In this document: positions 4,792 through 61,193 of the stretch, piece after piece
Position numbering within the stretch: the first letter of the stretch is position 1
How the letters are laid out: the number at the start of each line of letters is the position of its first letter
Source: Candidatus Micrarchaeota archaeon
GTDB lineage: Archaea; Micrarchaeota; Micrarchaeia; Norongarragalinales; UBA97
Assembly: GCA_016194335.1 (NCBI GenBank)
Contig: JACQBR010000008.1
Coordinates: 864 to 64,863 of the forward strand
Length of the DNA stretch: 64,000 nt
Direction: 5' to 3'
Translations under genes and position numbers: made by a program
The notes under the pieces: model-generated
What the model was told of the DNA's origin: nothing
What the model saw: the letters and a program-made list of their open reading frames with translations, nothing else
Database searches by the model: none

Positions 4792-7700
4792 ATGGTTAAC
4801 GACGTAAAGGATTTGGAAGAGCTTGTGAATTCCGTCTTGCCCCCCCAGTGCGAGCTTTCAAAAATAGAGCTCGAAGGCCCCCAGGTTGTGCTTTACCTCA
4901 AGAACATGCACGCGTTCTACGCCGACGTTAACCTCATCACGCGAATCGCTTCGAAAGTCCGCAAGAAGGTGCTCGTTCGTTCCGATTCCTCCATCCTAAT
5001 GCCTCCCGAAAGGGCGAAGGAAAAGGTCGCCGGCCTCATTCCCCCCGAGGCGGGAGTGAAGGAAATCCGTTTCGACCCGCATTTCAACGAGGTGCTCATC
5101 GAGGCCGCAAAGCCCGGGGTGGTAATCGGCAAGGGCGGAAGCGTGCTGAAAAGCATCACGCTCACCACCGGATGGTCCCCCCGCGTGCTCCGCGCGCCCA
5201 CGATGCCTTCCGAAATTGAGACTGCAATCCGAAACGCACTGCTTGCGGGCTCGGAGCAAAGGAAGAAATTCCTAGGGGTTTTTGGCAAGAGGATGCTGGG
5301 CGCCCCGGCCGCAACCGAGTGGGTGAAGATGACCGCGCTGGGAGGCTTTCGCGAAGTGGGCCGCAGCTGCTTTCTTTTGCAGACCCCGAAGAGCAACGTG
5401 ATTGTCGACTGCGGGCTCAACATCGACACCAGCGACGCCACGCGCGCCTATCCCTATCTCAACGCAATGGGGCTTTCGCTTGAGCAGATTGACGCGGTCA
5501 TCCTTTCGCACGCGCACCTCGACCACTGCCTCCATCCGGATTCCCTCATCCAGCTTGCAAACGGCGAAATAAGCAGCATTGAAGATTTGGCAGAACACGG
5601 CGGGGACGTCGTTTCTTACGATTTCGTTTCCGGCGCAACTGCAGGCGCTGTTGCAAGCAAGGGCGCTACTCAAAAGCCGGAAATGCTCAGGATCAAGACC
5701 AATTTATTCAGCATCCGCGCCACGCCAGAACACCGCTTTTTCGTCGTCAACGGCCTTGACGTGAGGGAAAAGCGCGCGGGAGAGCTGCGCGAGGGCGATT
5801 TCGTGGCGGCGCTGCGTTCAAGCAAATTCGAGGGAGCGGCAAACCAGCCTCTGCCCTTGGTGAAAGTGCAGGAGCTCGCTTTCATTTCGGGGGAAGGCAG
5901 GCTGAAAATGCGCCAAACGCGCGAGTCGTTCAAGCTGACCCGCAAGCAGGTTGCAGCAATTGCCGGAGTGCCGGCATGCCAATACGCATGGCTCGAATCG
6001 GGCAGGCACAAGCCGTCGAGGGAAAATTTGCAGAAATGCCTGCAGGCGCTGGGCCTGAAAACTCAGGATTTTGGGAATGAGGTTTCTGCAATCAAGTCGG
6101 CCGAGTTGCCCAAATTTTCAAGTGAGGAGTTCTGCCAGTTTTTGGGCTACGTCCTCGGCGACGGGAACGCGCACTATCAGGCGCACGATGCCAATTGCAA
6201 TGATTTGGCCGTGACGGACAAGGACGTGGCGAACCTCGAGTTTTACGCCCAGCTTGCAGAAAGGGTGTTCAATACAAAGCCGCGCTTTTCGCTCAAGGCG
6301 GGAACAAATGGCGGGAGAAACCGGGTGTTCTTCTCGTCCTACGTGACGAAGCTGATGTTCGCCTTGGACAAAGGGATTATTTGCCGCAGCCGCCAGCGCC
6401 GCGTACCCAAAATGATTCAGCGTGCGTCCAACGCCGAACTGGCCGCTTTCTTCCGCGGGCTTTTTGACGCCGAGGGGTCCGTGGGCCACCACTCGGTGAG
6501 GCTGGTCTCTTCAAGCGAGATGCTCTTGCGCGTGGCGCAGATGCTTCTATTGAGGCTGGGCGTGCAAAGCTGCATTGAAGAGCGCAAGGCGGTTTCGCAA
6601 AAAGCATTCTCCAAAGAGCCGTTCTACTGCCTTGCCATCACCCATCCCCGGTCGCTTTACGCATTCGGGGAGAAGATAGGCTTCTCATCAGAGGCGAAAT
6701 TGCAGAAATTCAAGGCGATGGCCGCCACCGTAGGCAATGCGCGCTCCGGAAAGGTTGACCTAATACCGATTGACGGTGCGGCGCTTAGGGCCGAATTGGC
6801 GGATGCGGGGTTGTTCGAAACCGATTTCGACTCCAGAATCTCCCGTTACTGGAACTGGAGCCACGCGCCGAGCAGGGAGGCAGTTGATGGAATCTGCGCG
6901 GGAATCGAAGCGCGTTTGCAGCTGCTGAAGACGGCTTCATCGCGGCAGGAGCTGCGAATAACGCAAGGGCAGGTCGGAAAGGCTTTGGGAGTGGACCAGT
7001 CGGTAGTTTCGGCAATCGAGCGCGGCAGAATCTCTTCGTGCAGCATTATCTACCGTGAGACGCAGGAGTTTTTGCACCTCTCCAGAGAAACCTGCATTTC
7101 AAAAGCGGAGCAACTTCTTCTCAAGTTGCGGATGCTCGTCTCGCAGGAGCTTGCGTGGGTGAAAATCAAGTCGATTGAAAATGAAACCCCGCCGGAGAAG
7201 GTTTACGACCTGAGCGTCCCCGGTTACGAGAACTTCGTTGCGGACGGTTTTGTCGTGCACAACTCCGGTTTCATCCCCTACCTCTACGCCTACGGCTACG
7301 AAGGCCCGGTCTACTGCACGCCCCCCACGCGGGACATGATGGTGCTTCTCCAGCAGGACTGCGTGAACGTGATGAATAGCGAGGGCGGCAAGGCCCCTTA
7401 CGGCGAGAGGGACATCAAGAAGGAGCTCATGCACGTGATCACCCGCGAGTACGGAGAGGTGACCGACGTGACGAGCGACATCCGCTTCACCTTCCACAAC
7501 GCGGGGCACATGATTGGAAGTTCCATCGTGCACATCCACATCGGCGAGGGCATGCACAACCTCATCTACTCCGGCGACATCAAGTTCGGCCGCACGAAAC
7601 TCTGCGACACCGCATCTACGCAATTCCCCCGCGCCGAGACGCTGATGATAGAGGCGACTTACGGCGGGCGCAACGACATCAAGCCGCGAATCGAGGATTG

Positions 7701-8424
7701 CGACGCGAAGCTCTCCGAAATCATCCGCACCGCAACCGGCCGCAGAGGCAAGGTCCTCATTCCCGTCCTCGCCTCTGGCCGCGCGCAGGAGCTGATGCTC
7801 ACGCTTGAGGAGCAGTTTTCCAACCCCGACTTCACCGTCTATATGGACGGCATGAGCCGCGAGGCAAGCGCAATCCACACTGTATATCCGGAATACCTGC
7901 GCCGCAACATCCAGCGCCGCATCCTGCAGAACGACTCGCCTTTCGACAAGCCGATGTTCAAGAACATACAGAACAACGACCACCGCAAGGCCATTGCCGA
8001 GTCGGACGAGCCCGCTGTGATTCTCGCGCCAAGCGGGATGCTCACCGGGGGGCCCAGTGTCGAGTTCCTCAAGCTGCTTGCCGACGACGCGCGCAATTCC
8101 CTCGTATTCGTGAGCTACCAGGGCGCACTCACGCTGGGCCGCAGGCTCCAGCAGGGGGAGAGGGAAGTGCCGGTGCTCAACCGCGCGAACAAGCAGGACT
8201 CGCTGAAGATTAACATGGCCGTGCAGAGCATCGAAGGCTACTCCGGCCACTCCGACCGCTCACAGCTCGTCGCGTGGACGCGCAACATCCGCCCCAAGCC
8301 CTCGCGCATCTTCACAATGCACGGCGAGGAAGGAAAGTGCGAGGAGCTCGTGCGCACGCTGGGCAAGATGCTCCACGTCCAGACGCAGGTGCCGATGAAC
8401 CTCGACAGCATCAGGCTGAAGTAG
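4792..8424 (+). CDS. aCPSF1/FttA (KH plus metallo-beta-lactamase plus beta-CASP ribonuclease), interrupted by a 579-aa intein
   Basis: N-terminal KH domains. MBL motif HAHLDH is followed directly by Cys. The extein resumes SGFIPYLYAYGYEGPVYC... The extein is 631 aa, a typical aCPSF1 length. Confidence 0.9.
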   Translation: MVNDVKDLEELVNSVLPPQCELSKIELEGPQVVLYLKNMHAFYADVNLITRIASKVRKKVLVRSDSSILMPPERAKEKVAGLIPPEAGVKEIRFDPHFNEVLIEAAKPGVVIGKGGSVLKSITLTTGWSPRVLRAPTMPSEIETAIRNALLAGSEQRKKFLGVFGKRMLGAPAATEWVKMTALGGFREVGRSCFLLQTPKSNVIVDCGLNIDTSDATRAYPYLNAMGLSLEQIDAVILSHAHLDHCLHPDSLIQLANGEISSIEDLAEHGGDVVSYDFVSGATAGAVASKGATQKPEMLRIKTNLFSIRATPEHRFFVVNGLDVREKRAGELREGDFVAALRSSKFEGAANQPLPLVKVQELAFISGEGRLKMRQTRESFKLTRKQVAAIAGVPACQYAWLESGRHKPSRENLQKCLQALGLKTQDFGNEVSAIKSAELPKFSSEEFCQFLGYVLGDGNAHYQAHDANCNDLAVTDKDVANLEFYAQLAERVFNTKPRFSLKAGTNGGRNRVFFSSYVTKLMFALDKGIICRSRQRRVPKMIQRASNAELAAFFRGLFDAEGSVGHHSVRLVSSSEMLLRVAQMLLLRLGVQSCIEERKAVSQKAFSKEPFYCLAITHPRSLYAFGEKIGFSSEAKLQKFKAMAATVGNARSGKVDLIPIDGAALRAELADAGLFETDFDSRISRYWNWSHAPSREAVDGICAGIEARLQLLKTASSRQELRITQGQVGKALGVDQSVVSAIERGRISSCSIIYRETQEFLHLSRETCISKAEQLLLKLRMLVSQELAWVKIKSIENETPPEKVYDLSVPGYENFVADGFVVHNSGFIPYLYAYGYEGPVYCTPPTRDMMVLLQQDCVNVMNSEGGKAPYGERDIKKELMHVITREYGEVTDVTSDIRFTFHNAGHMIGSSIVHIHIGEGMHNLIYSGDIKFGRTKLCDTASTQFPRAETLMIEATYGGRNDIKPRIEDCDAKLSEIIRTATGRRGKVLIPVLASGRAQELMLTLEEQFSNPDFTVYMDGMSREASAIHTVYPEYLRRNIQRRILQNDSPFDKPMFKNIQNNDHRKAIAESDEPAVILAPSGMLTGGPSVEFLKLLADDARNSLVFVSYQGALTLGRRLQQGEREVPVLNRANKQDSLKINMAVQSIEGYSGHSDRSQLVAWTRNIRPKPSRIFTMHGEEGKCEELVRTLGKMLHVQTQVPMNLDSIRLK
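5527..7263 (+). mobile_element. Intein (579 aa) with a LAGLIDADG homing endonuclease and an HTH domain, inserted in the aCPSF1 MBL motif HAHLDH|SG
   Basis: Begins with Cys (CLHPDSL), ends with ..VVHN and the +1 residue is Ser. Internal LAGLIDADG blocks FLGYVLGDGNAHY and FFRGLFDAEGSV. HTH segment LTRKQVAAIAGVP. Confidence 0.85.
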
Positions 8425-13163: not shown

Positions 13164-14861
13164 TTATCTGTATCGAAGGAACGCGCCGATGCCCTTGAAC
13201 GTTCCGTAGAACTGGTCGCCCTCTGCCGTTTCGCGCGATATCATCTCAACCACCACCCCCCTCTCCTCTGCAAGGCCGATGATGTCGTTGATGAGGTCCG
13301 TCTCTTTCTCAATCCTGAACTTTCCGCTCTTGCACTCGCTGCAGTCCTCCATGTGGGCGTTGTTGGTGCTTTGGATGGTCTTGGAAAAGCCGCACTGGCC
13401 GCACTTGAGCTGCAGTTCGTAGAGGTTCTGGTTTTCGCTTACGAGAAGCATCTTGGCCTGGTTGGCCTCAATTGCCTTTTTCACGTTGCCGTAGTTGGAG
13501 ACCACGAGCCCGCCGCGCACCGCCTCCTTGAGGAATTCGTCAAGAAGCTTCTTTTCCCTCACCGCCTCCTGCTCTGAAATCAGGTCCGAGGCCTTCTCCA
13601 TCACTTCCCTAAGGCCGTACTCGTCGGTATAGCCCGTGTCGACGATGCCGAGAATCTTGAGCTGGTAGTTGAACGGCGCGGCCTTCACCAAATCCTCCTT
13701 CGCCGGCCCCGGCCCTCCGACAATGACGCCCTTGAAGTTCTTCACCTCCAGAAACGCCGCCATCGCCTCGCCGATGCGCTCCTGGAAATACTCGATTCCC
13801 TCCTCGCGCAGCCGCGAGAAGCGCTGGGATGAGTTGTGCGCGACAATGCCGTTTGCGATGAAGTTCTCGTTCCCGGGTATTTCGAGGTCGTAGAAAAATG
13901 CCGTTGGATTGCGAATCACTTGAATAAAATCGATGGGGGAAATTGAGAGCTGGGAGAGAAGGGAGATTGAAGAGGTTGAGGCATTTTCCGCCGTAGAGTG
14001 GTTTAAATTCCCTTTTGAAAGCAGGCGTTCGCCGACGCTGAGGTCTTCTGCAAACCTTTCCCTCACCCTGCCGTTTTCGGAAACGAAGAAGCGGTGCTCT
14101 TTGGTGGCAATTATTTCTCCGCCGTTTCCAGTCTTGATTAGGAGCGCATCGTCAGAATTTCTCGCAAAAACATTGATGCATTCCTGTTCTTCAAATAGCT
14201 GGGTTTTCCAGTTGAACGAGAGCAGTTTATCTCCTGGCTTAACTTCCCGAATTTCCTTTATTTCCCCGCTGGCCATTTGCACCAACGTTTTTTCATGGAG
14301 GCACTGTCCACCTTTATGAGTCTTGGCATGCGCGGTCGAGTGGATTTGCTTGATGACTTTTATGTTCTTGCCCTTGAGCACCGCCACGGTCGCTTCCTTG
14401 CCGTCCATCACCACCAGCCCGTAAGCGCCGCTGTGCTCCACAAGCTCCTCAAGCGGCTCGAGGACGAAAGTGGATTCGCAGCGGTAGAACTGGGCGTTGA
14501 GGGGAACGGGCGGGACGATGGAATAGAGCTGCAAATCCTGCCTCCCTTCGGTTTCGGAGAGGTTGCCGCAGAAAATCGCCATTCCCGTCTTTGGCGTTTC
14601 GCGAAACGTCTTGAGGTACTGCACTATCTTTTCCAGCGCGGCAATCACGTTCTTGCGCGTGGAGGTGCTCTTGATGTTCGTCGCCGCGCCGGCCTCTTCC
14701 TTGAGCTTGCCGGCAATCTCGCTGATGGGATAGCCGGGAGTCATGTACACGCTGATGAGCTCGGTTCCCCTGCCCCGGAATTCCCTAAGCGACTTTATCT
14801 GCTTCTTGAACTCGTAAATCTCCCTGCTCTTCTGCGAGGAGAGGTCAGCACTGATTGCCAT
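13164..14861 (-). CDS. prf1: Peptide chain release factor aRF1, interrupted by a 157-aa mini-intein
   Basis: eRF1 domains. TAHAKTHKGGQ is followed by Cys, and the extein resumes SSQRFSRLRE. C-terminal zinc ribbon CGQCG...CSEC. Confidence 0.9.
   Translation of the reverse strand: MAISADLSSQKSREIYEFKKQIKSLREFRGRGTELISVYMTPGYPISEIAGKLKEEAGAATNIKSTSTRKNVIAALEKIVQYLKTFRETPKTGMAIFCGNLSETEGRQDLQLYSIVPPVPLNAQFYRCESTFVLEPLEELVEHSGAYGLVVMDGKEATVAVLKGKNIKVIKQIHSTAHAKTHKGGQCLHEKTLVQMASGEIKEIREVKPGDKLLSFNWKTQLFEEQECINVFARNSDDALLIKTGNGGEIIATKEHRFFVSENGRVRERFAEDLSVGERLLSKGNLNHSTAENASTSSISLLSQLSISPIDFIQVIRNPTAFFYDLEIPGNENFIANGIVAHNSSQRFSRLREEGIEYFQERIGEAMAAFLEVKNFKGVIVGGPGPAKEDLVKAAPFNYQLKILGIVDTGYTDEYGLREVMEKASDLISEQEAVREKKLLDEFLKEAVRGGLVVSNYGNVKKAIEANQAKMLLVSENQNLYELQLKCGQCGFSKTIQSTNNAHMEDCSECKSGKFRIEKETDLINDIIGLAEERGVVVEMISRETAEGDQFYGTFKGIGAFLRYR
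13833..14303 (-). mobile_element. Mini-intein (157 aa, no endonuclease domain) inserted immediately after the GGQ motif of aRF1
   Basis: CLHEKTL...IVAHN with +1 Ser. Removing it restores GGQSSQRF, which matches the consensus GGQSA.RF. Confidence 0.85.
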
Positions 14862-36556: not shown

Positions 36557-38218
36557 CTACTTCCTGCCATCCTGCAGCTTTTCAATCGGCACTTCCGTGT
36601 TTGCCTTTGTGCGTGCCGCGTCGCGGTTTGCCTTGAGCTTGCGCAGGAGGGTAAATCCGCCCGCGAGCGCTGCGAGGATGAGGATGACTCCCGCAATGAG
36701 CGTGAGGTCGATTTCGTTCTCGCGGCCCCGGAGGGAAACGAGCCGCGTGGAGAGGGCGGTTGCGTTCTGGCCCGCATTCTTGAACTGTTCGGCGGTGACG
36801 GGCCGGGCGGACTTGAGGTCCTGCTCGCTGAGCTGGAACGACTCGCGCAGTTGGGTGACCTGCTTCCGCATTTCGGCAACGCGCGGGTCGTTGGTGCCGA
36901 ATTTCTTCGTGGCGGTGGCGAGCGTCGCGGAGGCGTTGTTGATTGCGGATAGCGAGGCGGAGTAGTCGGCCAGGACTGCATTCTGGCTTTCGTAAGCGAG
37001 GGACGCGTCCGTTATTGCCTTGTCCGCGTCGGCAGCTGCGGTCGCGACGATGCTGGCGTTGGTCTGGTTGCCTATCGCGCCCAGCTTGGCGCGGGCGTCG
37101 GCGACTTTCTTGCCCAATCCCGGCAGGTCCATGTTCCTGTTGGCCTTCTTGAACGAGGAGGAGAGCCGTGCGTAATTGGCTTCAAGCGCGGCCACCTTGC
37201 CCTCCCTAAGCGCGGTTGCCTTCCTTATCGAGGCGGGAAGCGTCCTGCCCGCAGTGAAGGAGAGGATTGCATTTCCTATTGCTTGGGCGTTGGGGAACGA
37301 CGAGCCGGCGCTGGCCTGGCTGTCGATGTTGCCCATCGCGTTCACGTCGATGTTGCACCTGCCGAGCCCGCCGTCGTGGGCGAATTCGTATTGCGTGAGC
37401 ATCGAGGAGTGTGCCGAGTTGAACTGGTCGTAACCCGCCTTGAACGAGGTGATGTTGGACTTGATGTCTGAAAGTATGGGCGTTAGGCCTCCGACAGACG
37501 CCTGCTGGAATTCCCCGTCGAGGTCGGCAACGCGGCTGTTGATGTTGCGGAGGGAGCCGTTCATGGATGCGAATCCGGAGTTTATGGCGGCCTTTGCGGG
37601 GCCTATTGCCACCGAGAGGTTGAGGATGGAGCTCAGGTCGGTTGAATAGATGAGGGAGCACAGCCACGCCCTGCCGGCAGCGAGGATGAAGCAGAAGCTG
37701 CCCCGGTTGCCCTGGGTGAAGTTGTAGTAAACCTGGCTGCAGTAGTCCGTGCTGGACTTGAGGGAAGCGTAGTTGGTCTTTATCGCGTCAAGGTTGGCTT
37801 GCTTGAACGGGATGTCAAGCTGCGAAACGTATGCGGGGACTGCCGCGTTGATGTCCGAAAGCGTCGTGAGGGCGTTTTCGTTCTCGTCAAAGACGATTGC
37901 CTCGCTCCCGCCCACCTTCACCAGCGTGTATTTCCTGCCCCCCGCCGTGACGGGAACCTTTTCGGGCGTCTCGCCGGAGTTGAGGTAATAGCCTATTTCC
38001 GCATCCACGCCGGTGAGCGCGGGCTTTGCGGGGGTTGCGTTCACCGTGGCATTGCCGCCCGTTGGGGGTGCGCCCGCGGTCGCGTTTGCCGAGGCGTTAA
38101 GGGCGGCGCTGCCCGAAGCGTTTGCCGAGGCGGAACCGTTGGCCAGCGCCGAGGCAAAACCCGCGCTTAGCAGCAGGAACATCAACGGGAGGAGCAAAGC
38201 CTTCCTGGCAAAAAGCAT
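36557..38218 (-). CDS. Surface glycoprotein with a signal peptide, many N-glycosylation sequons, and a C-terminal TM anchor with a basic tail
   Basis: N-terminal signal. NGS, NAS, NAT, NQT and NIT sequons throughout. C-terminus LIAGVILILAALAGGFTLLRKLKANR. Confidence 0.65.
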   Translation of the reverse strand: MLFARKALLLPLMFLLLSAGFASALANGSASANASGSAALNASANATAGAPPTGGNATVNATPAKPALTGVDAEIGYYLNSGETPEKVPVTAGGRKYTLVKVGGSEAIVFDENENALTTLSDINAAVPAYVSQLDIPFKQANLDAIKTNYASLKSSTDYCSQVYYNFTQGNRGSFCFILAAGRAWLCSLIYSTDLSSILNLSVAIGPAKAAINSGFASMNGSLRNINSRVADLDGEFQQASVGGLTPILSDIKSNITSFKAGYDQFNSAHSSMLTQYEFAHDGGLGRCNIDVNAMGNIDSQASAGSSFPNAQAIGNAILSFTAGRTLPASIRKATALREGKVAALEANYARLSSSFKKANRNMDLPGLGKKVADARAKLGAIGNQTNASIVATAAADADKAITDASLAYESQNAVLADYSASLSAINNASATLATATKKFGTNDPRVAEMRKQVTQLRESFQLSEQDLKSARPVTAEQFKNAGQNATALSTRLVSLRGRENEIDLTLIAGVILILAALAGGFTLLRKLKANRDAARTKANTEVPIEKLQDGRK

Positions 38219-40709: not shown

Positions 40710-41780
40710 TCAGCCTGCGTTTTCGTAGTTGTACATCGCCGCGATTTCCGTTGCTGAAAGGGCGCGGGCGTACACGTGCGCCTCGTCGATCTGCCCGTTG
40801 AGGTTTTCGGCGTTGTAGTCAGTTCCCCCTCCGGCATACCAGTTGCGCGAGCCGGTGATTGCGTTGGCGTTTCCTGCGGAGTAGACTGGCGCGCCATTGA
40901 GGTAGAGCGTCACCGTTCCTGAAGACCTCACCCACGCGACGTGGTACCATTGGTTCGCGCTAAGAACCGGCCCGCCGCTTGTGGCTGCGGTGGCGTAATA
41001 GTTGACAATGCCGTTGTAGACATATAATTCAACCCCGCCGGCATTTCCAGAGCCGTAGTTGCCCATCACAAAATTAGCGACAGCTGGATTGACGAGATTC
41101 ACCCACGCGGTTGCCGTGAAATCCCCCGTGCCGGTTATCAACGGGGTTGAAAGGCCGATTTTCTGGCTTGAGCTTGGCCCGGCAAACGAATAGCACCCTC
41201 CCTTCTTGCAGGATGGAACGAATGTCGGCGGGCCGTTGAGGTTGCCGTTGTTGCCGCTGGGGCTCGCGTCAAGGGCGTTGTTTTCAAGGTGCAGCGAGAG
41301 CACCGCGGTGGAGTCCACCCAAGGGAGCCATGCGCCTTCGTACCTTCCGCGGATTGTCCCGGAAAGCGTGTGGTTGATTCCGCTCCGGGCGTTCACGTAC
41401 CATCCCCTTACCGCGCCTTGGTATGTGCTTCCGGGCGCACCTGAAGGCAATGCCCCGGACGCCTTGCACGTCGTGTTCCCCCCGGCTGCGACGGAGGCGG
41501 GGCTGCATGAGCCCCCTGCGACGGAGATGTTGCTTATGGCGTTTCCGAGCTGGTTGTTCAGAATGATCGTGAGCTTTCCGAGCGGGTCGACTGAAAAATC
41601 GCTTGCCAGCATTCCGGAGAACCCCGATGCGCTTTTGACGCCGATGAAGGACTCGGGGCTGAAGACGCCGGTGTACCACAAGGCCGCGCCGATGATGACG
41701 ATTGCGAGGATGGCCCAGCCGTAAGTGACGAGGTATTCGAGTGCGGACTGTCCCCTCGGGCGTGCAGGTTGCAATGCCAT
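40710..41780 (-). CDS. Type IV pilin-like protein (class III signal peptide) with a C-terminal LamG/ConA-like lectin domain
   Basis: PRGQSALEYLVTYGWAILAIVIIG is an archaeal prepilin peptidase site followed by a hydrophobic helix. C-terminal domain with W.HVAWV....LYLNG resembles Laminin_G_3. Confidence 0.65.
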   Translation of the reverse strand: MALQPARPRGQSALEYLVTYGWAILAIVIIGAALWYTGVFSPESFIGVKSASGFSGMLASDFSVDPLGKLTIILNNQLGNAISNISVAGGSCSPASVAAGGNTTCKASGALPSGAPGSTYQGAVRGWYVNARSGINHTLSGTIRGRYEGAWLPWVDSTAVLSLHLENNALDASPSGNNGNLNGPPTFVPSCKKGGCYSFAGPSSSQKIGLSTPLITGTGDFTATAWVNLVNPAVANFVMGNYGSGNAGGVELYVYNGIVNYYATAATSGGPVLSANQWYHVAWVRSSGTVTLYLNGAPVYSAGNANAITGSRNWYAGGGTDYNAENLNGQIDEAHVYARALSATEIAAMYNYENAG

Positions 41781-42016
41781 GGGATGAATCTCCAATGGAC
41801 TACTGTTTGGAGGTTTATAAAGCGGCATCAAACCGCACTTTGTCTCGTCAACCGCCGGCCTTATTTCAAGGGCTGGTTTGGTTCAGAAGGAAATCACTTC
41901 CTGCCCGGATATTGCCGCAGCATCCCTTACTCTCACCGCCCGCCTTTGCTCACTCTTTTATACCGATGATTCCTTACTTTAGTTGCAAAGTTCGTTTTTG
42001 GAGGATTGATTTGAAA

Positions 42017-54647: not shown

Positions 54648-56870
54648 ATGGCACGAAAGGAAGTTGTCGTCGACGAAGTCGTCCGCCTCATGGGCGCGCG
54701 GGAATACATCCGCAACATGGGCATAGTCGCGCACGTGGATCACGGAAAAGGCTAAAGCCACATTGCGGGCTTTGCTTACGGTCAGACCACGCTGAGCGAC
54801 TCTCTCGTAGCAGTAGCGGGGCTCATTTCCCGCGACCTGGCCGGGGAGCAGCGCGTGCTCGATTACGACCCTCAGGAGCAGGCGCGCGGAATCACGATCA
54901 AGGCCGCGAACATCTCCCTTGGGTTCAACTACGAGAACCAGGATTACATCATCAACATGATTGACACTCCCGGCCACGTGGACTTCGGCGGCCACGTCAC
55001 GCGCGCCATGCGCGCCGTTGACGGCGTGATTCTCGTCATTGACAGCGTGGAGGCCATCATGCCGCAGACAGAGACGGTGCTGCGCCAGGCGCTCAAGGAG
55101 AAAGTGCGCCCCGTGCTCTTCATCAACAAGATAGACCGGCTCATCAACGAGCTCAAGCTCGACTCGAAGGGGATGCAGGAGAGGTTCCTCAAAATCATCA
55201 GCGGGGTGAACAAGCTCATCGCCACCTACGCGCCCGACGAGTTCAAGCAGGAGTGGCAGCTCAGCGTGGAAAAGGGCAACGTGGCTTTCGGAACCGGCTT
55301 TCACAAGTGGGCCGTTTCGTACCCCATCATGAAAAAGACGGGAATGAACTTCAAGGAGCTTTACGACTTATGCGCCGCTGACAACCACGCCGAACTGCGC
55401 AAGAAGGCGCCGCTTGAGGAAGTCATTCTCGAAATCGTCGTGAGGAACCTCCCGTCGCCCATCACGGCGCAGAAATACCGCATTCCCGTCATCTGGCACG
55501 GGGACAAGGGGAACGCGTGGGGCAGGGGAATGCTCACCTGCGACCCGAAGGCGCCCGCCTGCTTCATGGTAACGGCGGTGCAGGTGGACGAGCACGCCGG
55601 CGAAGTGGCAATCGGCCGCCTCTACTCCGGAACGATACGGAAAGGGACCGAACTCTATCTCGCGGGCCAGTTCAAGAACCAGAAGGTGCAGAGCGTCGCG
55701 ATTTACATGGGCCCCGACCGCGTGCTCGTGGACGAAGTGCCTTCGGGCAACATCGTCGCCGTCATCGGGCTCAAGGACGTGTTTGCAGGCGAGACGGCAA
55801 GCGAAGGCCAGATGGACGCATTCGAAAAGATCAAGCACCACTCCGTGCCCGTCGTGACCAAGAGCGTGGAGGCTAAAAACCCCCGCGACCTCGTCAAGCT
55901 CATCGAAGTCCTACAGAAATTGGGCAAGGAAGACCCCACCATCCGGGTTGAAATCAACCAGCAGACGGGCGAGCACCTCATTTCCGGAATGGGTGAGCTG
56001 CACCTCGAAATCATCGAGTACAAGATTGCCAAGGAAAGGGGCGTGGAGATCGAGACGTCCCCGCCGATTGTGGTCTACCAGGAGGCCGTCCTCGAGCGCG
56101 GGCCCGAGCTTGAGGGCAAGTCGCCGAACAAGCACAACAAGTTCAAGCTCGAAGTGATGCCTCTTGAGGAAGGCGTGCGCAAGGCCATCGAGGAAGGCAC
56201 GATTGACGAGCGCACGAAGGGCAAGGAGCTTGTCGAGAAGCTCATCGCAGCGGGGCTGGAGCGGGATGAGGCGAAGAAAATCATCTGCATCCACCGCGAC
56301 AACATCTTCATCGACGCGTCGAAGGGAGTGCAGTTCCTCCAGGACATCAAGGAGCTGCTCATCCAGGCTTTCGAGGAGGCCGTCGAGCAGGGGCCGCTTG
56401 CCAAGGAGAAAGTCGTGGGGCTAAAAGTGCTTCTCAACGACGCGGTGATCCACGTCGACCCGGCCCACCGCGGGCCCGCGCAGGTCTTCCCCGCAATCAA
56501 GCGCCCGCTCTACGCAGGCATGGTCATGGCGAAGTGCGTGCTTTTCGAACCCAAGCAGAAGCTCGTGGTCAACGCTCCCGCCGAGTACATGAGCAACATA
56601 ATCCAGAGCATCCAGGGAAGGCGCGGGCAGGTGCTTGACATCGCGCAGGACGGCGAGCTCATCAACGTGACGGCCAAAGTCCCAGTCGCCACCATGTTCG
56701 GCTTTGCCTCCGACATCCGCGGGGCGTCGCAAGGCCGCGCCGCGTGGTATTACGAATACGCCGGTTACGAACAGCTGCCCTCGAGCTTGCAGGGACCGAC
56801 GATCGCGGCCATCCGCAAGCGCAAGGGCGAGAACGAAACCCCGCCGACGGCGAAGGACTTTCTGGACTAA
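54648..56870 (+). CDS. fusA: Elongation factor 2 (aEF-2), interrupted by a 36-nt in-frame insertion (54750..54785) that carries a TAA stop
   Basis: [34 protein letters not shown], then the insertion encoding [11 protein letters not shown], then [12 protein letters not shown].... Deleting exactly 36 nt restores the consensus G1 motif AHVDHGKTTLSD. Everything downstream through [11 protein letters not shown] and the C-terminus is EF-2. Confidence 0.85.
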
Positions 56871-57031: not shown

Positions 57032-58264
57032 CTAATTCCAGCTTGCCATCCTTACGGCCTTCTTTCCCCTGCGGCTCGGCCTTCGCTTGCCCGGCCTCCT
57101 GCGCAATGCCACCGCGGCGTAATTGAGGCCGAGCGGGACGGCCTTGGCTATTTCGGGAAGCGCAGCGCCGGCAGAGGCAGCGCCGGCATAGCCTAAAACC
57201 GGGACGGAATACGGCGGGGTGAACTCCGGCCTTGCGGCAAGGCGTACTGTCTTTGCCGCCTGCACCGCCGCCAGTGCCTTCCGCCTGTTGGCAATGTATT
57301 TCCTGTCGCTGGCGCTTAGGTAGTTTCTCCGAAACCTTCGAAAGGCGCCCCAGCCGCCGTCCTTGTACGAGAGATTGAGGTAGTCCTGCAGCTTTTTGTG
57401 GTTGATGTTATTGTAGTTTGTCCCTCTGTTGATGAGGTTTCGAAGAAGACGGTTGGCGTTGAAGAAAGCCGTGTGCACGGCGTTGGTGACGTTGAGGCGA
57501 ATGCGCCTTTCATTCTCCGCCCCGATTTCCCCGGGCGTGAGCTCGCGGGGCGTCTTTCCCTTCATCCGGGCGAATCTCTCCAAGTCCTTTTGGTAGACCT
57601 CTTCAAATTCGGAAGTGTCAAGCCTCGTGGAAACGGAGCGGAGCGCGTCCCCAACCGCCTTCGGGGGGATTAATGGCCGCATTTCAAAAAGTTTAGTTCC
57701 CGCCGGCACCGCCCCGTCCTTGATTGCCTGGCTGAGAGATTCATCCGTGACTTGGCCGAGGCCGTTTGCAAAAATCTCGCCATTCCTGTTTCGCAAAGGC
57801 ACGACCGCCTTGTCGCCGCCGCCTTTGACAACCCTGAAGTTGGCGTCCCAAGGAGCCAGTCCGCTTTCGGCAATCAGAATAGCGTGGATGAAATCGGGGG
57901 TGACGAACCTCGAGGCATCGGCGTAATTGAGGTCGGCATTGTGCCTTGCAACTTCGGCCCGAATGGCTTCGTTGATCAGTCCGCTCGCGTCGGGGATGCC
58001 CGTGTGCCGCTCGGTAAGATAGTATTCGGGATGCCCCAAAATTTCTGCAGCTTTGCGGTGGTCCACTTTTTCCCTTCGTTCGAACATTCCGGCAGCAGAC
58101 TGCGCGGCCACCTTCCGCTCGAATTCCTGGCGCGGGGCGCTGTTGAACTTCACTTCGCCCGCCTTGAGGAGCCCCATCAGTGCCAGGGCCGGCAGGAGCC
58201 TCTTTGCGATTCTGGCGGTTCCACCGACTCCCTGCCTTCTTGAATTTTCCGACGCGCGGGTCAT
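57032..58264 (-). CDS. Secreted protein with a lytic-transglycosylase (SLT/lysozyme-like) domain
   Basis: Signal peptide RLLPALALMGLLKAG. IAESGLAPWDAN...ANGLGQV resembles the SLT motif ES..P.A.S..GA.GLMQ. Start taken at MTRASENS. Confidence 0.45.
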   Translation of the reverse strand: MTRASENSRRQGVGGTARIAKRLLPALALMGLLKAGEVKFNSAPRQEFERKVAAQSAAGMFERREKVDHRKAAEILGHPEYYLTERHTGIPDASGLINEAIRAEVARHNADLNYADASRFVTPDFIHAILIAESGLAPWDANFRVVKGGGDKAVVPLRNRNGEIFANGLGQVTDESLSQAIKDGAVPAGTKLFEMRPLIPPKAVGDALRSVSTRLDTSEFEEVYQKDLERFARMKGKTPRELTPGEIGAENERRIRLNVTNAVHTAFFNANRLLRNLINRGTNYNNINHKKLQDYLNLSYKDGGWGAFRRFRRNYLSASDRKYIANRRKALAAVQAAKTVRLAARPEFTPPYSVPVLGYAGAASAGAALPEIAKAVPLGLNYAAVALRRRPGKRRPSRRGKKAVRMASWN

Positions 58265-58352
58265 AATTATGCTTTTGTCCGTCCGCCTCTTTAAAACCTC
58301 CCGCGCCGATGGGGAGTCGGCCTTAAATATCTCCGGCAGCGTTCTGTTTCCG

Positions 58353-59090
58353 ATGGACCGCAAAACCGCTCGCAAGCTCGCCCACGCCGAGATGGAGATG
58401 CGGCGTTCGGACGAAGGGTCGTTCCTAAGGCAGATCATCCTCGGCGGCCAGGATGGCCTTGTGAATGTGTTGGGCGTGCTTCTCGGAGTCGCGTCGGGCA
58501 CTTCCGACACCGGCATCGTAATCATCGCCGGGCTTGCCGCGACTTTTGCGGAGAGCATTTCCATGGCCGCAGTCGCCTACACCTCCTCGAAGGCAGAGCA
58601 GGATTTCTACCGCAAGGAGTTCGAGAGGGAAAAGCGGGAAATAAGGGAGCTTCCCGAGGTGGAGACCGAGGAGATTCGCCTCATTTACATGAAAAAGGGG
58701 TTCCGGGGCAGCCAACTCAATTCCATCGTGAAGAAAATCACTTCCGACCAGAAGGTCTGGCTGCAGGTGATGATGCAGGAGGAACTCGGCCTTTCCGAGT
58801 CGGAGAAGGTTAACCCCCTGCGCGAGGGAATCGTAGTGGGTCTTGCGGCTTTGGCCGGCTCGCTCGTCCCCCTCATCCCGTTCTTCCTCCTTCCCCTCCA
58901 GTCCGCGGTAATCGCCTCGCTGGCGGTTTCGATAATGGCGCTTTTCGCCATGGGCGCATACAAGGGCAAGCTCACGCTTGGCGACTGGATGCGAAGCGGG
59001 TTTGAGATTGCAGTCATCGGCATGATAGCCGCCATTGCGGGCTACGCAATCGGCGCGGCTGCCGGAAACGCCAAACTGGGCACGGGATAG
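58353..59090 (+). CDS. VIT1/CCC1-family Fe/Mn transporter
   Basis: Cytoplasmic N-terminal helix then GGQDGLVNVLGVLLGVASG. Five TM helices. Start at MDRKTARKL. Confidence 0.7.
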   Translation: MDRKTARKLAHAEMEMRRSDEGSFLRQIILGGQDGLVNVLGVLLGVASGTSDTGIVIIAGLAATFAESISMAAVAYTSSKAEQDFYRKEFEREKREIRELPEVETEEIRLIYMKKGFRGSQLNSIVKKITSDQKVWLQVMMQEELGLSESEKVNPLREGIVVGLAALAGSLVPLIPFFLLPLQSAVIASLAVSIMALFAMGAYKGKLTLGDWMRSGFEIAVIGMIAAIAGYAIGAAAGNAKLGTG

Positions 59091-59171: not shown

Positions 59172-59723
59172 TTATTTCCAGAAGGAGCCCAGCCAGCTGA
59201 AGAAGCCTGAAAGAAAGTCGTAGATTCCGTTGCCTTGCGTGACGGCGAGGCCGGTAACGGGGGCCGGTTCGCCTGAAGAAGCGGGTTGGCCTGCGCCTTC
59301 AGTTTCGGCCAACTCTATTTTCGCTTCCGCCCTCGCCTCCGCCCCTCCCGAATCCGAGGCAACCGCCCTCACCGTAATCGTGCCCGGCGCCTGCACGAGT
59401 TTGAGCCTGCAGGAATATTCGCAGGAAATCCCGCCGCATTCGCCCCGGCCCATTCTTTCAAACTCCAGCAAAACCCCTTTCGGATCGTAAGCCGAGCATT
59501 GCGCCGACTTTTCCACAACGTCGCCGGCGCCGTTGTTGTCCGAAATGGAGAAAACCGCCTCGAGCCCGCCCCCCCGCGCAACTGCGCTCTCAAAACGGAT
59601 TTCGGGAGGCGAGTTGGCGATGCTCACGCTCGTGCCCACCGCGTCGGCTGCGACAAAATTGGCCGGGAGGACGAGCATCAAGACTGCAATTGCTGCGGCA
59701 ATGAGGTTCAAACTTTTTTTCAT
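59172..59723 (-). CDS. Secreted hypothetical protein with a signal peptide
   Basis: MKKSLNLIAAAIAVLMLVLPA signal peptide. Cys pairs. Confidence 0.4.
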   Translation of the reverse strand: MKKSLNLIAAAIAVLMLVLPANFVAADAVGTSVSIANSPPEIRFESAVARGGGLEAVFSISDNNGAGDVVEKSAQCSAYDPKGVLLEFERMGRGECGGISCEYSCRLKLVQAPGTITVRAVASDSGGAEARAEAKIELAETEGAGQPASSGEPAPVTGLAVTQGNGIYDFLSGFFSWLGSFWK

Positions 59724-59740
59724 GTCGTTTTCCATCTCCT

Positions 59741-60121
59741 CTAGCTTCGTCTCGCGCCGGCAAGGCGTTTGAATTTAACGTGAATCATCGTGACCGTGCG
59801 CGCCTCATTCATCACGCTCGTGCGGTAGACGGTCTGGATGTCGTGAATGGCGAGGCCCGCGAGCCTGCACGCCTCTTCCAACGGCTCGTGGTCCCTGATG
59901 TTGAGCGCGGTGATGCCTGCGGCCGTGATTATGGAATCCGATATATTGGGTGCGTGGTCTATCGCTATGTAAATGCCGCTTCCGTCGTTTGGGACCAGCA
60001 CCTTGCTCCGATGGAATGCCGATTGGTCGACTACCGACTTGATTATGGGCCTGAACTTCCGCAAGATAACGGCATCAACCCGCGAAGCCGCACTTTCCGC
60101 AACGCGCCTTGTTTCGTTCAT
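59741..60121 (-). CDS. Hypothetical protein (126 aa) upstream of agmatinase
   Basis: ORF co-directional with speB. No recognisable motif. Confidence 0.3.
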   Translation of the reverse strand: MNETRRVAESAASRVDAVILRKFRPIIKSVVDQSAFHRSKVLVPNDGSGIYIAIDHAPNISDSIITAAGITALNIRDHEPLEEACRLAGLAIHDIQTVYRTSVMNEARTVTMIHVKFKRLAGARRS

Positions 60122-60179: not shown

Positions 60180-61193
60180 CTACCGCATTGATTTCGCAAA
60201 AGCGCTTGCCGCAATGAAATAGGCCAGCTTTGCCGCGAGAAAATCCGGGGCGGCCAAGCCCGGAATGGGCGAGAGTTCCACGACGTCCGCGCCGACGATG
60301 TTGCGGGCCATTGCGACTTCACGAATTATTTTCGTCACCTGCCACCAGAGGAGGCCGTTGGGTTCGGGCGTTCCCACCGAGGGCATGATTGACGGGTCGA
60401 GGCCGTCGAGGTCGAAAGAAAGGTAAACGTCCCTCTTGAGTTTGGGAAGGATTCTTTTCTGAATGATCTTGTCGAGATTTGCGCCGTTTCCTTTCCCGCC
60501 ATCGTTGAACTCGTGCGCAAAAACAATCTCCACGCCCGCCTTCCCTGCGTTTGCAAGCTCCTGCTCCCCCGCGCTCCTCACCCCCACAATAACTTCGCCG
60601 ATTTTTTCATTCGCGATTGACGGGGTGATGTCGGCAATCTTTTCGCCCCGCAGGGTCGCGGCGACTCGCTTGGCTCCGCCCGAGTTTCCCGCATCTGCAA
60701 TCCTCGCGCCGACCGAAGCGTGGGAATAGCCGGAGCCTTCGTACTCGTCCCACCAGTCGGCGTGCGCGTCGAAACACAGAACGGAAGCGTCTTTTGCGTG
60801 AAAATGCTGTGCGATTGCCTGAACCGCGCCGATGGTGATGGAATGTTCGCCTCCCAGCATCAGCGGGAATTTCTTTTTCTCAAGAACCTGCCCGACAACG
60901 TCCTTCACGCGCCCGACCGTTTCCTTCGAGTCACCACGCGCGGGTTCCAGCTCGTTGAGGGTGAAAAAACCGACTTGCTTTTCGGCGTTGAACTTCAGTT
61001 CCGAATCGTATGGCTCGAGAAACCTCGAGGCGGAAATGATTGCGTGCGGGCCTTCGCGCGCGCCCGTCCCGTAGGTGGCGGTGGAGTCGAAAGGCACTGG
61101 GAGAACCGCCACTCGCGCGCGTTCAAACGCCTTTTCGCCGTCCTGCCCGCTTCCGCAGAAGTTGTACGGCGGGAGGGAATGGAGGAGCTTCAT
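60180..61193 (-). CDS. speB: Agmatinase/arginase-family ureohydrolase
   Basis: GGEHSIT, DAHADW and SFDLDGLDP manganese-ligand motifs. Confidence 0.85.
   Translation of the reverse strand: MKLLHSLPPYNFCGSGQDGEKAFERARVAVLPVPFDSTATYGTGAREGPHAIISASRFLEPYDSELKFNAEKQVGFFTLNELEPARGDSKETVGRVKDVVGQVLEKKKFPLMLGGEHSITIGAVQAIAQHFHAKDASVLCFDAHADWWDEYEGSGYSHASVGARIADAGNSGGAKRVAATLRGEKIADITPSIANEKIGEVIVGVRSAGEQELANAGKAGVEIVFAHEFNDGGKGNGANLDKIIQKRILPKLKRDVYLSFDLDGLDPSIMPSVGTPEPNGLLWWQVTKIIREVAMARNIVGADVVELSPIPGLAAPDFLAAKLAYFIAASAFAKSMR

Follow-up and report, generated by a model that had tools for sequence, protein, structure and literature searches.

Exported domains of the SLT/GH23 type have been described in DPANN archaea (PMC8204110, 2021), GH23 in Lake A Woesearchaeota has been interpreted as predatory (PMC9723730), and extracellular GH23 has been reported in 'Ca. 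Norongarragalinales' (PMC8561730). These DPANN proteins, which are likewise of an exported type, are read as tools that bind or degrade bacterial walls. The same concept, an archaeon secreting an anti-murein enzyme, underlies the bacteria-killing modular peptidoglycan hydrolases of archaea (Strock et al. 2025, PMC12352652), which combine a catalytic with a wall-binding domain, carry Sec or Tat signals in about a third of cases, and come from a survey that used Pfam hidden Markov models (HMMs). Here we describe a minus-strand gene at positions 57032 to 58264 of a 64,000-nt stretch of DNA from a Candidatus Micrarchaeota archaeon, a minute symbiont (assembly GCA_016194335.1, contig JACQBR010000008.1, positions 864 to 64,863 of the forward strand; this whole stretch is hereafter the window), which probably encodes an exported GH23-like glycanase with bacterial peptidoglycan as its putative substrate.

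The gene adds to a known category, that of SLT/GH23 domains in DPANN archaea; the reports just cited also weaken the premise of the original prediction, made from the sequence, that an SLT-like enzyme is surprising in an archaeon. What is new is a divergence that hides the protein from profile libraries, an insertion and a C-terminal tail, a restriction to five lineages, and a fixed chromosomal slot. Whereas the known DPANN GH23/SLT proteins are recognised by standard profiles or CAZy and reach ~3,000 aa, members of the present family have 370-440 aa, escape profile libraries, and occur only in a single clade of Micrarchaeota, where their gene keeps a fixed place on the chromosome. In the window protein, in contrast to the modular hydrolases of PMC12352652, no binding domain can be recognised, and that screen would overlook it.

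Family-1 lytic transglycosylases (PF01464, CAZy GH23; Slt70, MltC, MltD, MltE and MltF) share with the archaeal family the order of E-S, G-L-x-Q and Y-x-x-G motifs, a Glu at a helix end followed by a small beta-sheet, a profile-profile alignment that, at low stringency or with the insertion removed, is collinear through all motifs, and an extracytoplasmic location, which for the archaeal family is predicted. The archaeal family differs in having GLGQ rather than GLMQ and SYKDG rather than AYNAG, a longer hairpin between motifs I and II, an insertion of ~60 residues, an invariant N-E pair, a hydrophobic C-terminus with a polybasic tail, and an archaeal host that lacks murein. A phage GEWL-like protein is the best match of the model described below in a structure comparison, a g-type lysozyme (3gxk) is among its non-significant PDB matches, and goose-type lysozyme (GEWL, 153L) aligns with the SLT set in hhalign; in contrast to GEWL, the archaeal family has no conserved Asp matching the auxiliary acids in the beta-sheet.

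A small family in one Micrarchaeota clade

The gene, its promoter-like element and its two terminal segments are laid out as follows.

57032..58264, minus strand: complete gene of 410 codons plus stop, from open reading frame (ORF) and translation, in a five-lineage, Micrarchaeota-restricted family
58290..58296, minus strand: TTTTAAA, resembling a TATA box, with the ATG 26-32 nt downstream, read from the sequence
58166..58264, minus strand: export-signal-like N-terminal segment, residues 1-33, basic and then hydrophobic (LLPALALMGLL; hydropathy peak at residues 19-33)
57035..57232, minus strand: variable C-terminal linker, short hydrophobic stretch AVPLGLNYAAVAL and polybasic tail RRRPGKRRPSRRGKK, with a predicted local distance difference test score (pLDDT) below 50

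The minus-strand ORF starts at an annotated ATG (58264) and ends, stop included, at 57032. The 410-aa product has the same sequence as MBI3587926.1 (HY095_01910, Candidatus Micrarchaeota archaeon, annotated 'hypothetical protein') and shares 99% identity with HY995_02615, which comes from another assembly. We rejected a longer, 510-aa reading from the first ATG (58564) because its upstream part overlaps the divergent VIT1 gene and has no support from homologues. The TTTTAAA box belongs to the 88 bp that separate the family gene from the divergent VIT1, and it fits an archaeal TATA box that would serve a leaderless or near-leaderless mRNA.

Exhaustive single-sequence phmmer searching of 1.84 billion cluster representative proteins returned four real relatives, P0002 (E=5e-27), P0003 (E=2e-19), P0004 (E=2e-15) and P0006 (E=7e-06), so that the family is very small: five lineages among all these representatives, every one from a single Micrarchaeota clade. 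Members have 370-440 aa and are 23-36% identical. Another match, P0005 (2,599 aa), is a low-complexity repeat protein and was discarded as spurious. P0006 (313 aa; L001 1-1008, at the contig end in GCA_021782355.1) is a call cut short at the N-terminus, 57 nt downstream of an in-frame stop, and its cluster mate P0007 (373 aa, on other contigs) is the full-length form, with the N-terminus that P0006 is missing. Nothing outside the family came back from word-indexed homologue searches, a core-only profile with a cut-off of E<=10 included.

Only 22 columns are invariant across the five homologues. They include E133, S134, P138, G168, L169, G170, Q171, T173, L177, Y224, N251 and E252, further F267, N269, Y300, G303, D320, Y323 and R327, and a few others, and they follow the order of the signature E-S / G-L-M-Q / A-Y-N-x-G of family-1 lytic transglycosylases. 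That E133, S134, G168-Q171, Y300 and G303 all fall among so few columns argues that the motifs exceed chance. The segment quoted in the original prediction, FIHAILIAESGLAPWDANF...NGEIFANGLGQVTDES, is present at residues 125-176, with its ES at E133-S134 and its GLGQV at residues 168-172. Loss of the catalytic Glu among homologues had been named there as a finding that would speak against an SLT-like enzyme; the putative Glu is invariant in 5/5 members, as are GLxQ and Y..G, and so this objection does not apply.

A basic N-terminus followed by a hydrophobic stretch is common to all full-length members (P0002, P0003, P0004, P0007 and the window protein). In the window protein the basic region covers 22 aa and the hydrophobic stretch 11 residues, with no clear signal-peptidase (A-x-A) site, and P0007 carries a canonical textbook signal peptide with its boundary between MKKTRRDSLAILSLAVLSHMGSSA and I. 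A Tat signal was considered, since R-R precedes the hydrophobic stretch in P0002 and P0004, and was set aside because the window protein has K-R with intervening charges. The Sec-type signal peptide that had been predicted thus stands as regards the basic and hydrophobic N-terminus and its support from P0007, and falls short at the cleavage site. This organization suggests Sec export, which would place the catalytic domain outside the cell. Every homologue also ends in a hydrophobic stretch and a basic tail; the hydrophobic segment may be a membrane anchor, and the protein may be held at the membrane by it with the basic tail inside.

Evidence for a putative GH23-like catalytic core

Within the protein we distinguish a conserved core and the following motifs.

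57305..57937, minus strand: conserved core, residues 110-320, putative GH23 or lysozyme-like catalytic domain (from pLDDT, hhalign and Foldseek against BFVD)
57863..57868, minus strand: motif I, E133-S134, with E133 as putative catalytic acid (invariant in 5/5; aligns to E-S of Slt70, MltC/D/E/F and GEWL)
57752..57763, minus strand: motif II, G168-L-G-Q171, counterpart of SLT G-L-M-Q with Gly for Met (invariant in 5/5; hhalign and the Pfam SLT match of P0003 both place it in register with GLMQ)
57527..57709, minus strand: lineage-specific helical insertion of ~60 residues (186-246) between motif II and the distal motifs, without counterpart in canonical SLT domains
57509..57514, minus strand: N251-E252 in a helical ENERR motif (invariant in 5/5)
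57353..57370, minus strand: distal motif S299-Y-K-D-G-G304, putative counterpart of SLT A-Y-N-x-G (Y300 and G303 invariant; aligned to Slt70 AYNAG by hhalign)

HMM, profile-profile and structure tests each weakly single out GH23. Among HMM searches, residues 157-216 of P0003 match positions 11-51 of the Pfam SLT model (PF01464) with E=0.014 and 15.4 bits, a match that spans exactly the ES..GLGQ region and improves to E=0.0016 in a post hoc test with the lineage-specific insertion removed. Few families at all were recovered for any member, and none of them but Pfam SLT matches the motifs in register. P0003 also matches the PHROG families 'endolysin' (E=0.005) and 'lytic tail fiber'; we do not count these matches as evidence because they are located in charged helical segments.

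For profile-profile comparison we used hhalign with a reference set of six GH23 domains, namely E. coli slt (Slt70), emtA (MltE), mltC, mltD and mltF together with goose lysozyme, the sequence of which was checked against 153L. The family profile aligned to these domains with P=0.002-0.004 and with ES and GLxQ in register, and a post hoc profile without residues 186-246 aligned over 99 columns through ES, GLxQ and AYNxG (P=1.6e-4, probability 51%). None of 120 column-shuffled decoys reached the real score (maximum 19.6 versus real scores of 27.3 and 33.7), and a reversed-profile control scored 10 versus 27-34 for the real alignments. The profile-profile similarity therefore lies above chance; with hhalign probabilities of just 9-51%, we regard its support as moderate. 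The individual motifs differ in how readily they align: S-Y-K-D-G-G pairs with AYNAG only at low stringency or once the insertion is removed, and N251-E252, at low stringency, may correspond to the SLT 'P-E-x-N-I' motif or may instead give a second carboxylate.

An AlphaFold2 model built with a five-sequence alignment is confident in the core (pLDDT ~80-93 over residues ~70-340). In this model E133-S134 terminate helix 123-134 at its C-terminal end, and GLGQ comes after a beta-hairpin (143-156) and opens helix 174-182, a predicted helix / Glu / sheet / helix arrangement that is lysozyme-like. Foldseek comparison of the model with BFVD gave as best match a viral 'GEWL-like protein' (E=0.041, prob 1.00, TMt 0.48), with an endolysin and tail lysozymes lower down the list, and the top PDB matches, none of them significant, included T4-lysozyme fusions and the g-type lysozyme 3gxk, a complex with N-acetylglucosamine (NAG) oligomers. 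Between motifs I and II only P138 is invariant, and there is no conserved Asp in the sheet region; this suggests that single-carboxylate chemistry of the lytic-transglycosylase type would be favoured over lysozyme-type hydrolysis.

Several results weigh against a GH23 assignment, and none of the similarity tests clears a threshold that is curated or conventionally taken as significant. The best score in the family, 15.4 bits, does not reach the Pfam SLT gathering score of 21.3 bits, and only 1/5 members (P0003) touches that model at all. Queried at E<=10 in Pfam, NCBIfam, PHROGs and the sequences of PDB, the window protein returned only noise (bL28, SdbC_C, Phage_TAC_5 and YeiL, E ~0.05-0.3), the family consensus and the motif-region and core fragments had no matches in Pfam, and PDB-sequence searches with both the full family profile and the insertion-deleted profile gave zero matches. 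Removal of residues 186-246 was one choice among seven deletions. Foldseek of the model against PDB found nothing below E=0.6, and a second AlphaFold model, of P0006, was poor, with a disordered beta region and no Foldseek matches.

One possibility is thus that the protein is not a glycanase but a lineage-specific, mostly helical, membrane-associated protein whose SLT-like motifs arose by chance or convergence. This would agree with the marginal value of every similarity statistic, none of which passes a curated cut-off, with a model built on just five sequences, with the lack of an SLT match in 4/5 members, and with PHROG matches in charged helical regions that are weak and may be compositional. 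However, GH23 comes out on top in three different methods (HMM, profile-profile and structure) independently of one another. The positions that they match coincide exactly with residues invariant in the family, both the order and the secondary-structure setting of these residues are correct, and decoy profiles never come near the real score. We therefore consider a non-glycanase quite unlikely, and the core very probably a genuine, very divergent GH23-type lysozyme-like domain. Since the formal Pfam membership test failed, we describe the protein as related to, or working like, the SLT family and do not file it as a member. The SLT-like assignment of the original prediction is accordingly upheld by the invariant motifs and by weak, convergent similarity, and lacks a significant profile match, the absence of which had been listed there as counting against it.

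Chromosomal position, inheritance and putative substrate

The family gene is convergent to the aEF-2 gene, within an rpoA-(L7Ae-NusA-S12)-S7-EF2 cluster, and has these neighbours in the window.

54648-56870, plus strand: aEF-2 gene
58353-59090, divergent from the family gene: VIT1 transporter gene (Pfam VIT1, E=3e-61)
59172-59735, minus strand: 187-aa ORF between agmatinase and VIT1, with a clear N-terminal signal-like segment (MENDMKKSLNLIAAAIAVLMLVLPANFVAADA) and no Pfam match
59741-60121, minus strand: 126-aa ORF between agmatinase and VIT1
60180-61193, minus strand: agmatinase (arginase-family) gene

Split RpoB, RpoA, S7, aEF-2, aEF-1alpha, aRF1, FttA/aCPSF1 and SerRS mark the source organism as archaeal, and the archaeal host that had been proposed is borne out by RpoB/RpoA, S7, aEF-2 and aEF-1alpha among them. 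The slot by EF-2 and/or agmatinase is kept in 3/4 other lineages, and only P0003 is encoded at a different location. Locus L011 has the order EF-1alpha, a 133-aa gene, agmatinase and the family gene, and then the convergent EF-2, S7, S12, NusA, L7Ae and RpoA; in L001 the family gene is likewise convergent with EF-2, and in L009 agmatinase immediately precedes it. The window has VIT1 and the two small ORFs inserted between agmatinase and the family gene. Across these related genomes, identity is 75-79% for EF-2, ~73% for S7, 52-63% for agmatinase and 23-35% for the family protein, and the GC content of the loci spans 36% to 58%.

In L011 (7071-9224) and L009 (5657-7900), agmatinase and the family gene are co-directional and 24-70 nt apart, and they possibly form an operon there; the agmatinase linkage may also be only positional. 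As a separate observation, the archaeal S7 / EF-2 / EF-1alpha / S10 cluster of this clade would be contiguous but for agmatinase and the GH23-like gene, which together interrupt it. The 187- and 126-aa ORFs occur only in assemblies of the same species (L002, L003), with no counterpart beside the family gene in other lineages. As a candidate for a conserved partner we considered the 126-aa ORFs that adjoin the gene in two loci; they are unrelated, and the loci have no small neighbour in common.

These comparisons bear on a further reading, in which the gene is a recently acquired bacterial or phage lysin, an offensive weapon with secretion or immunity partners, as the original prediction had entertained. 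Archaeal peptidoglycan hydrolases of bacterial origin that kill bacteria do exist (PMC12352652), and the structure most similar to the model belongs to a phage GEWL-like protein. However, we found no bacterial, phage or plasmid relative among the 1.84 billion representatives, in a GTDB genome scan or by phage tblastn, and no secretion or immunity partner is conserved beside the family gene across the compared loci. The tblastn search gave weak Vibrio phage matches over ES..GLGQ; these belong to a coiled-coil hypothetical protein with no lysozyme signal, and we attribute them to chance. The GC content (0.59) and third-codon-position GC content (GC3, 0.71) of the gene both match the neighbouring genes and are thus native, and the slot is shared with 3/4 other lineages although the related genomes range from 36% to 58% GC. 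Because its composition is native and its slot is shared, the family gene is not a recent import; recent acquisition as a weapon is largely refuted and in our view highly improbable, and neither the donor nor the partners that had been predicted were found.

Comparison of two strains shows 6 synonymous and 6 non-synonymous changes in the gene; of the latter, 5/6 fall in the C-terminal linker and 1/6 in the core. The gene is old in its clade, vertically inherited and fast-evolving outside the motifs, with a core under constraint.

On balance we favour the reading that the gene encodes an exported, probably membrane-tethered, divergent GH23-fold enzyme of one Micrarchaeota clade that most likely cuts bacterial peptidoglycan. 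The analysis establishes the gene, its family, the invariant motifs, the synteny and a weak but convergent similarity to GH23, and export, membrane tethering, catalysis and substrate are the parts of this reading that we infer. The proposed mechanism follows that of family-1 lytic transglycosylases: E133, which closes its helix at the C-terminal side, would act as a single acid/base that cleaves the beta-1,4 bond beside an N-acetylated sugar, S134, Q171 and Y300 would line the -1/+1 subsites, and the beta-hairpin would form one wall of the cleft; the 60-residue helical insertion and the C-terminal basic anchor would be additions of the lineage. The substrate would most likely be bacterial peptidoglycan, either of neighbouring or host bacteria or in wall debris, and the enzyme could serve attachment, attack or amino-sugar scavenging by an organism with a reduced genome. 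Three considerations tell against this picture. The hydrophobic segments at both ends of the protein are short, and for that reason export and anchoring stay at the level of prediction; the content of the window does not discriminate between substrates; and the known hosts of cultured Micrarchaeota are Thermoplasmatales, which are wall-less.

An alternative is a GH23-like fold with a non-murein substrate, in which some other GlcNAc-containing polymer would be cut or bound, for example chitin or chito-oligosaccharides, envelope glycans of an archaeal host, or the cell's own surface glycans in remodelling of a cell-cell contact zone. All the evidence for a GH23 fold applies equally to this alternative, and GH23 includes chitin-active members, with goose lysozyme acting on chitin oligomers. 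Strong divergence from murein-specific SLTs, an insertion of 60 residues near the cleft and the extra invariant N251-E252 pair would fit altered specificity, and a vertically inherited, syntenic and apparently single-copy gene looks more like a housekeeping or symbiosis gene than a weapon. On the other hand, every substrate considered here is putative, the ES / GLxQ / YxxG set is typical of murein lytic transglycosylases, and no carbohydrate-binding module or glycan-synthesis genes are linked to the gene. We regard a non-murein substrate as unlikely and retain bacterial peptidoglycan as the preferred one.

A bolder version of either reading would make the protein a clade-defining surface glycanase through which cells engage partner cells, whether it targets murein or has evolved a non-murein specificity on the GH23 scaffold; we consider this a long shot. 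A murein target, if true, would mean that the clade lives on or preys on bacteria and not on wall-less archaea, whereas a non-murein specificity, for example for an archaeal envelope glycan, would make the insertion and N251-E252 a new active-site arrangement. If the protein is truly GH23-like, surveys based on Pfam or CAZy miss such divergent families and may undercount antagonism or scavenging between archaea and bacteria, and the gene would offer a testable handle on the lifestyle of uncultured Micrarchaeota, that is, on what the cells touch or eat. Small size, an apparently single copy, a conserved position and ease of expression make the gene a practical target for biochemistry.

Inteins and a candidate intron in other window genes

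Elsewhere in the window we noted the following features.

36557-38218, minus strand: 553-aa ORF with no Pfam match
40710-41831, minus strand: 373-aa protein with a C-terminal Laminin_G_3 / concanavalin-A-like lectin domain (E=7e-22)
4792-8424, plus strand: fttA (FttA/aCPSF1) with an intein, 1210 aa, LAGLIDADG and HTH domains in the intein
13164-14861, minus strand: aRF1 with a mini-intein, 565 aa
46322-51334, plus strand: rpoA with an intein, 1670 aa, Intein_splicing and LAGLIDADG_3

The 373-aa Laminin_G_3 protein may be another surface carbohydrate-binding protein. The rpoA orthologues in L001 and L011 encode 1146-1147 aa and are intein-free.

The aEF-2 gene, which is convergent to the family gene, contains a 36-nt insertion (GGCTAAAGCCACATTGCGGGCTTTGCTTACGGTCAG) with an in-frame TAA at window positions 54748-54785, where it splits the P-loop codons between AHVDHGK and TTLSD. 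The L011 and L001 orthologues lack the insertion, and the independent assembly L002, whose annotation has no EF-2 gene call, carries it with a single substitution. Together with its flanks it folds into a relaxed bulge-helix-bulge (-31.7 kcal/mol, z = -2.5) composed of a 15-bp exon-exon helix, an intron hairpin and, between them, a 4-bp helix that contains one mismatch and is flanked by a 2-nt CA bulge and a 3-nt AAA bulge. We therefore consider the insertion a candidate bulge-helix-bulge archaeal mRNA intron in an essential translation factor. A literature search for such an EF-2 mRNA intron found no report, and the insertion may be more unusual than the GH23-like gene itself. Combined with the three inteins, it makes for a striking load of selfish elements in essential genes.

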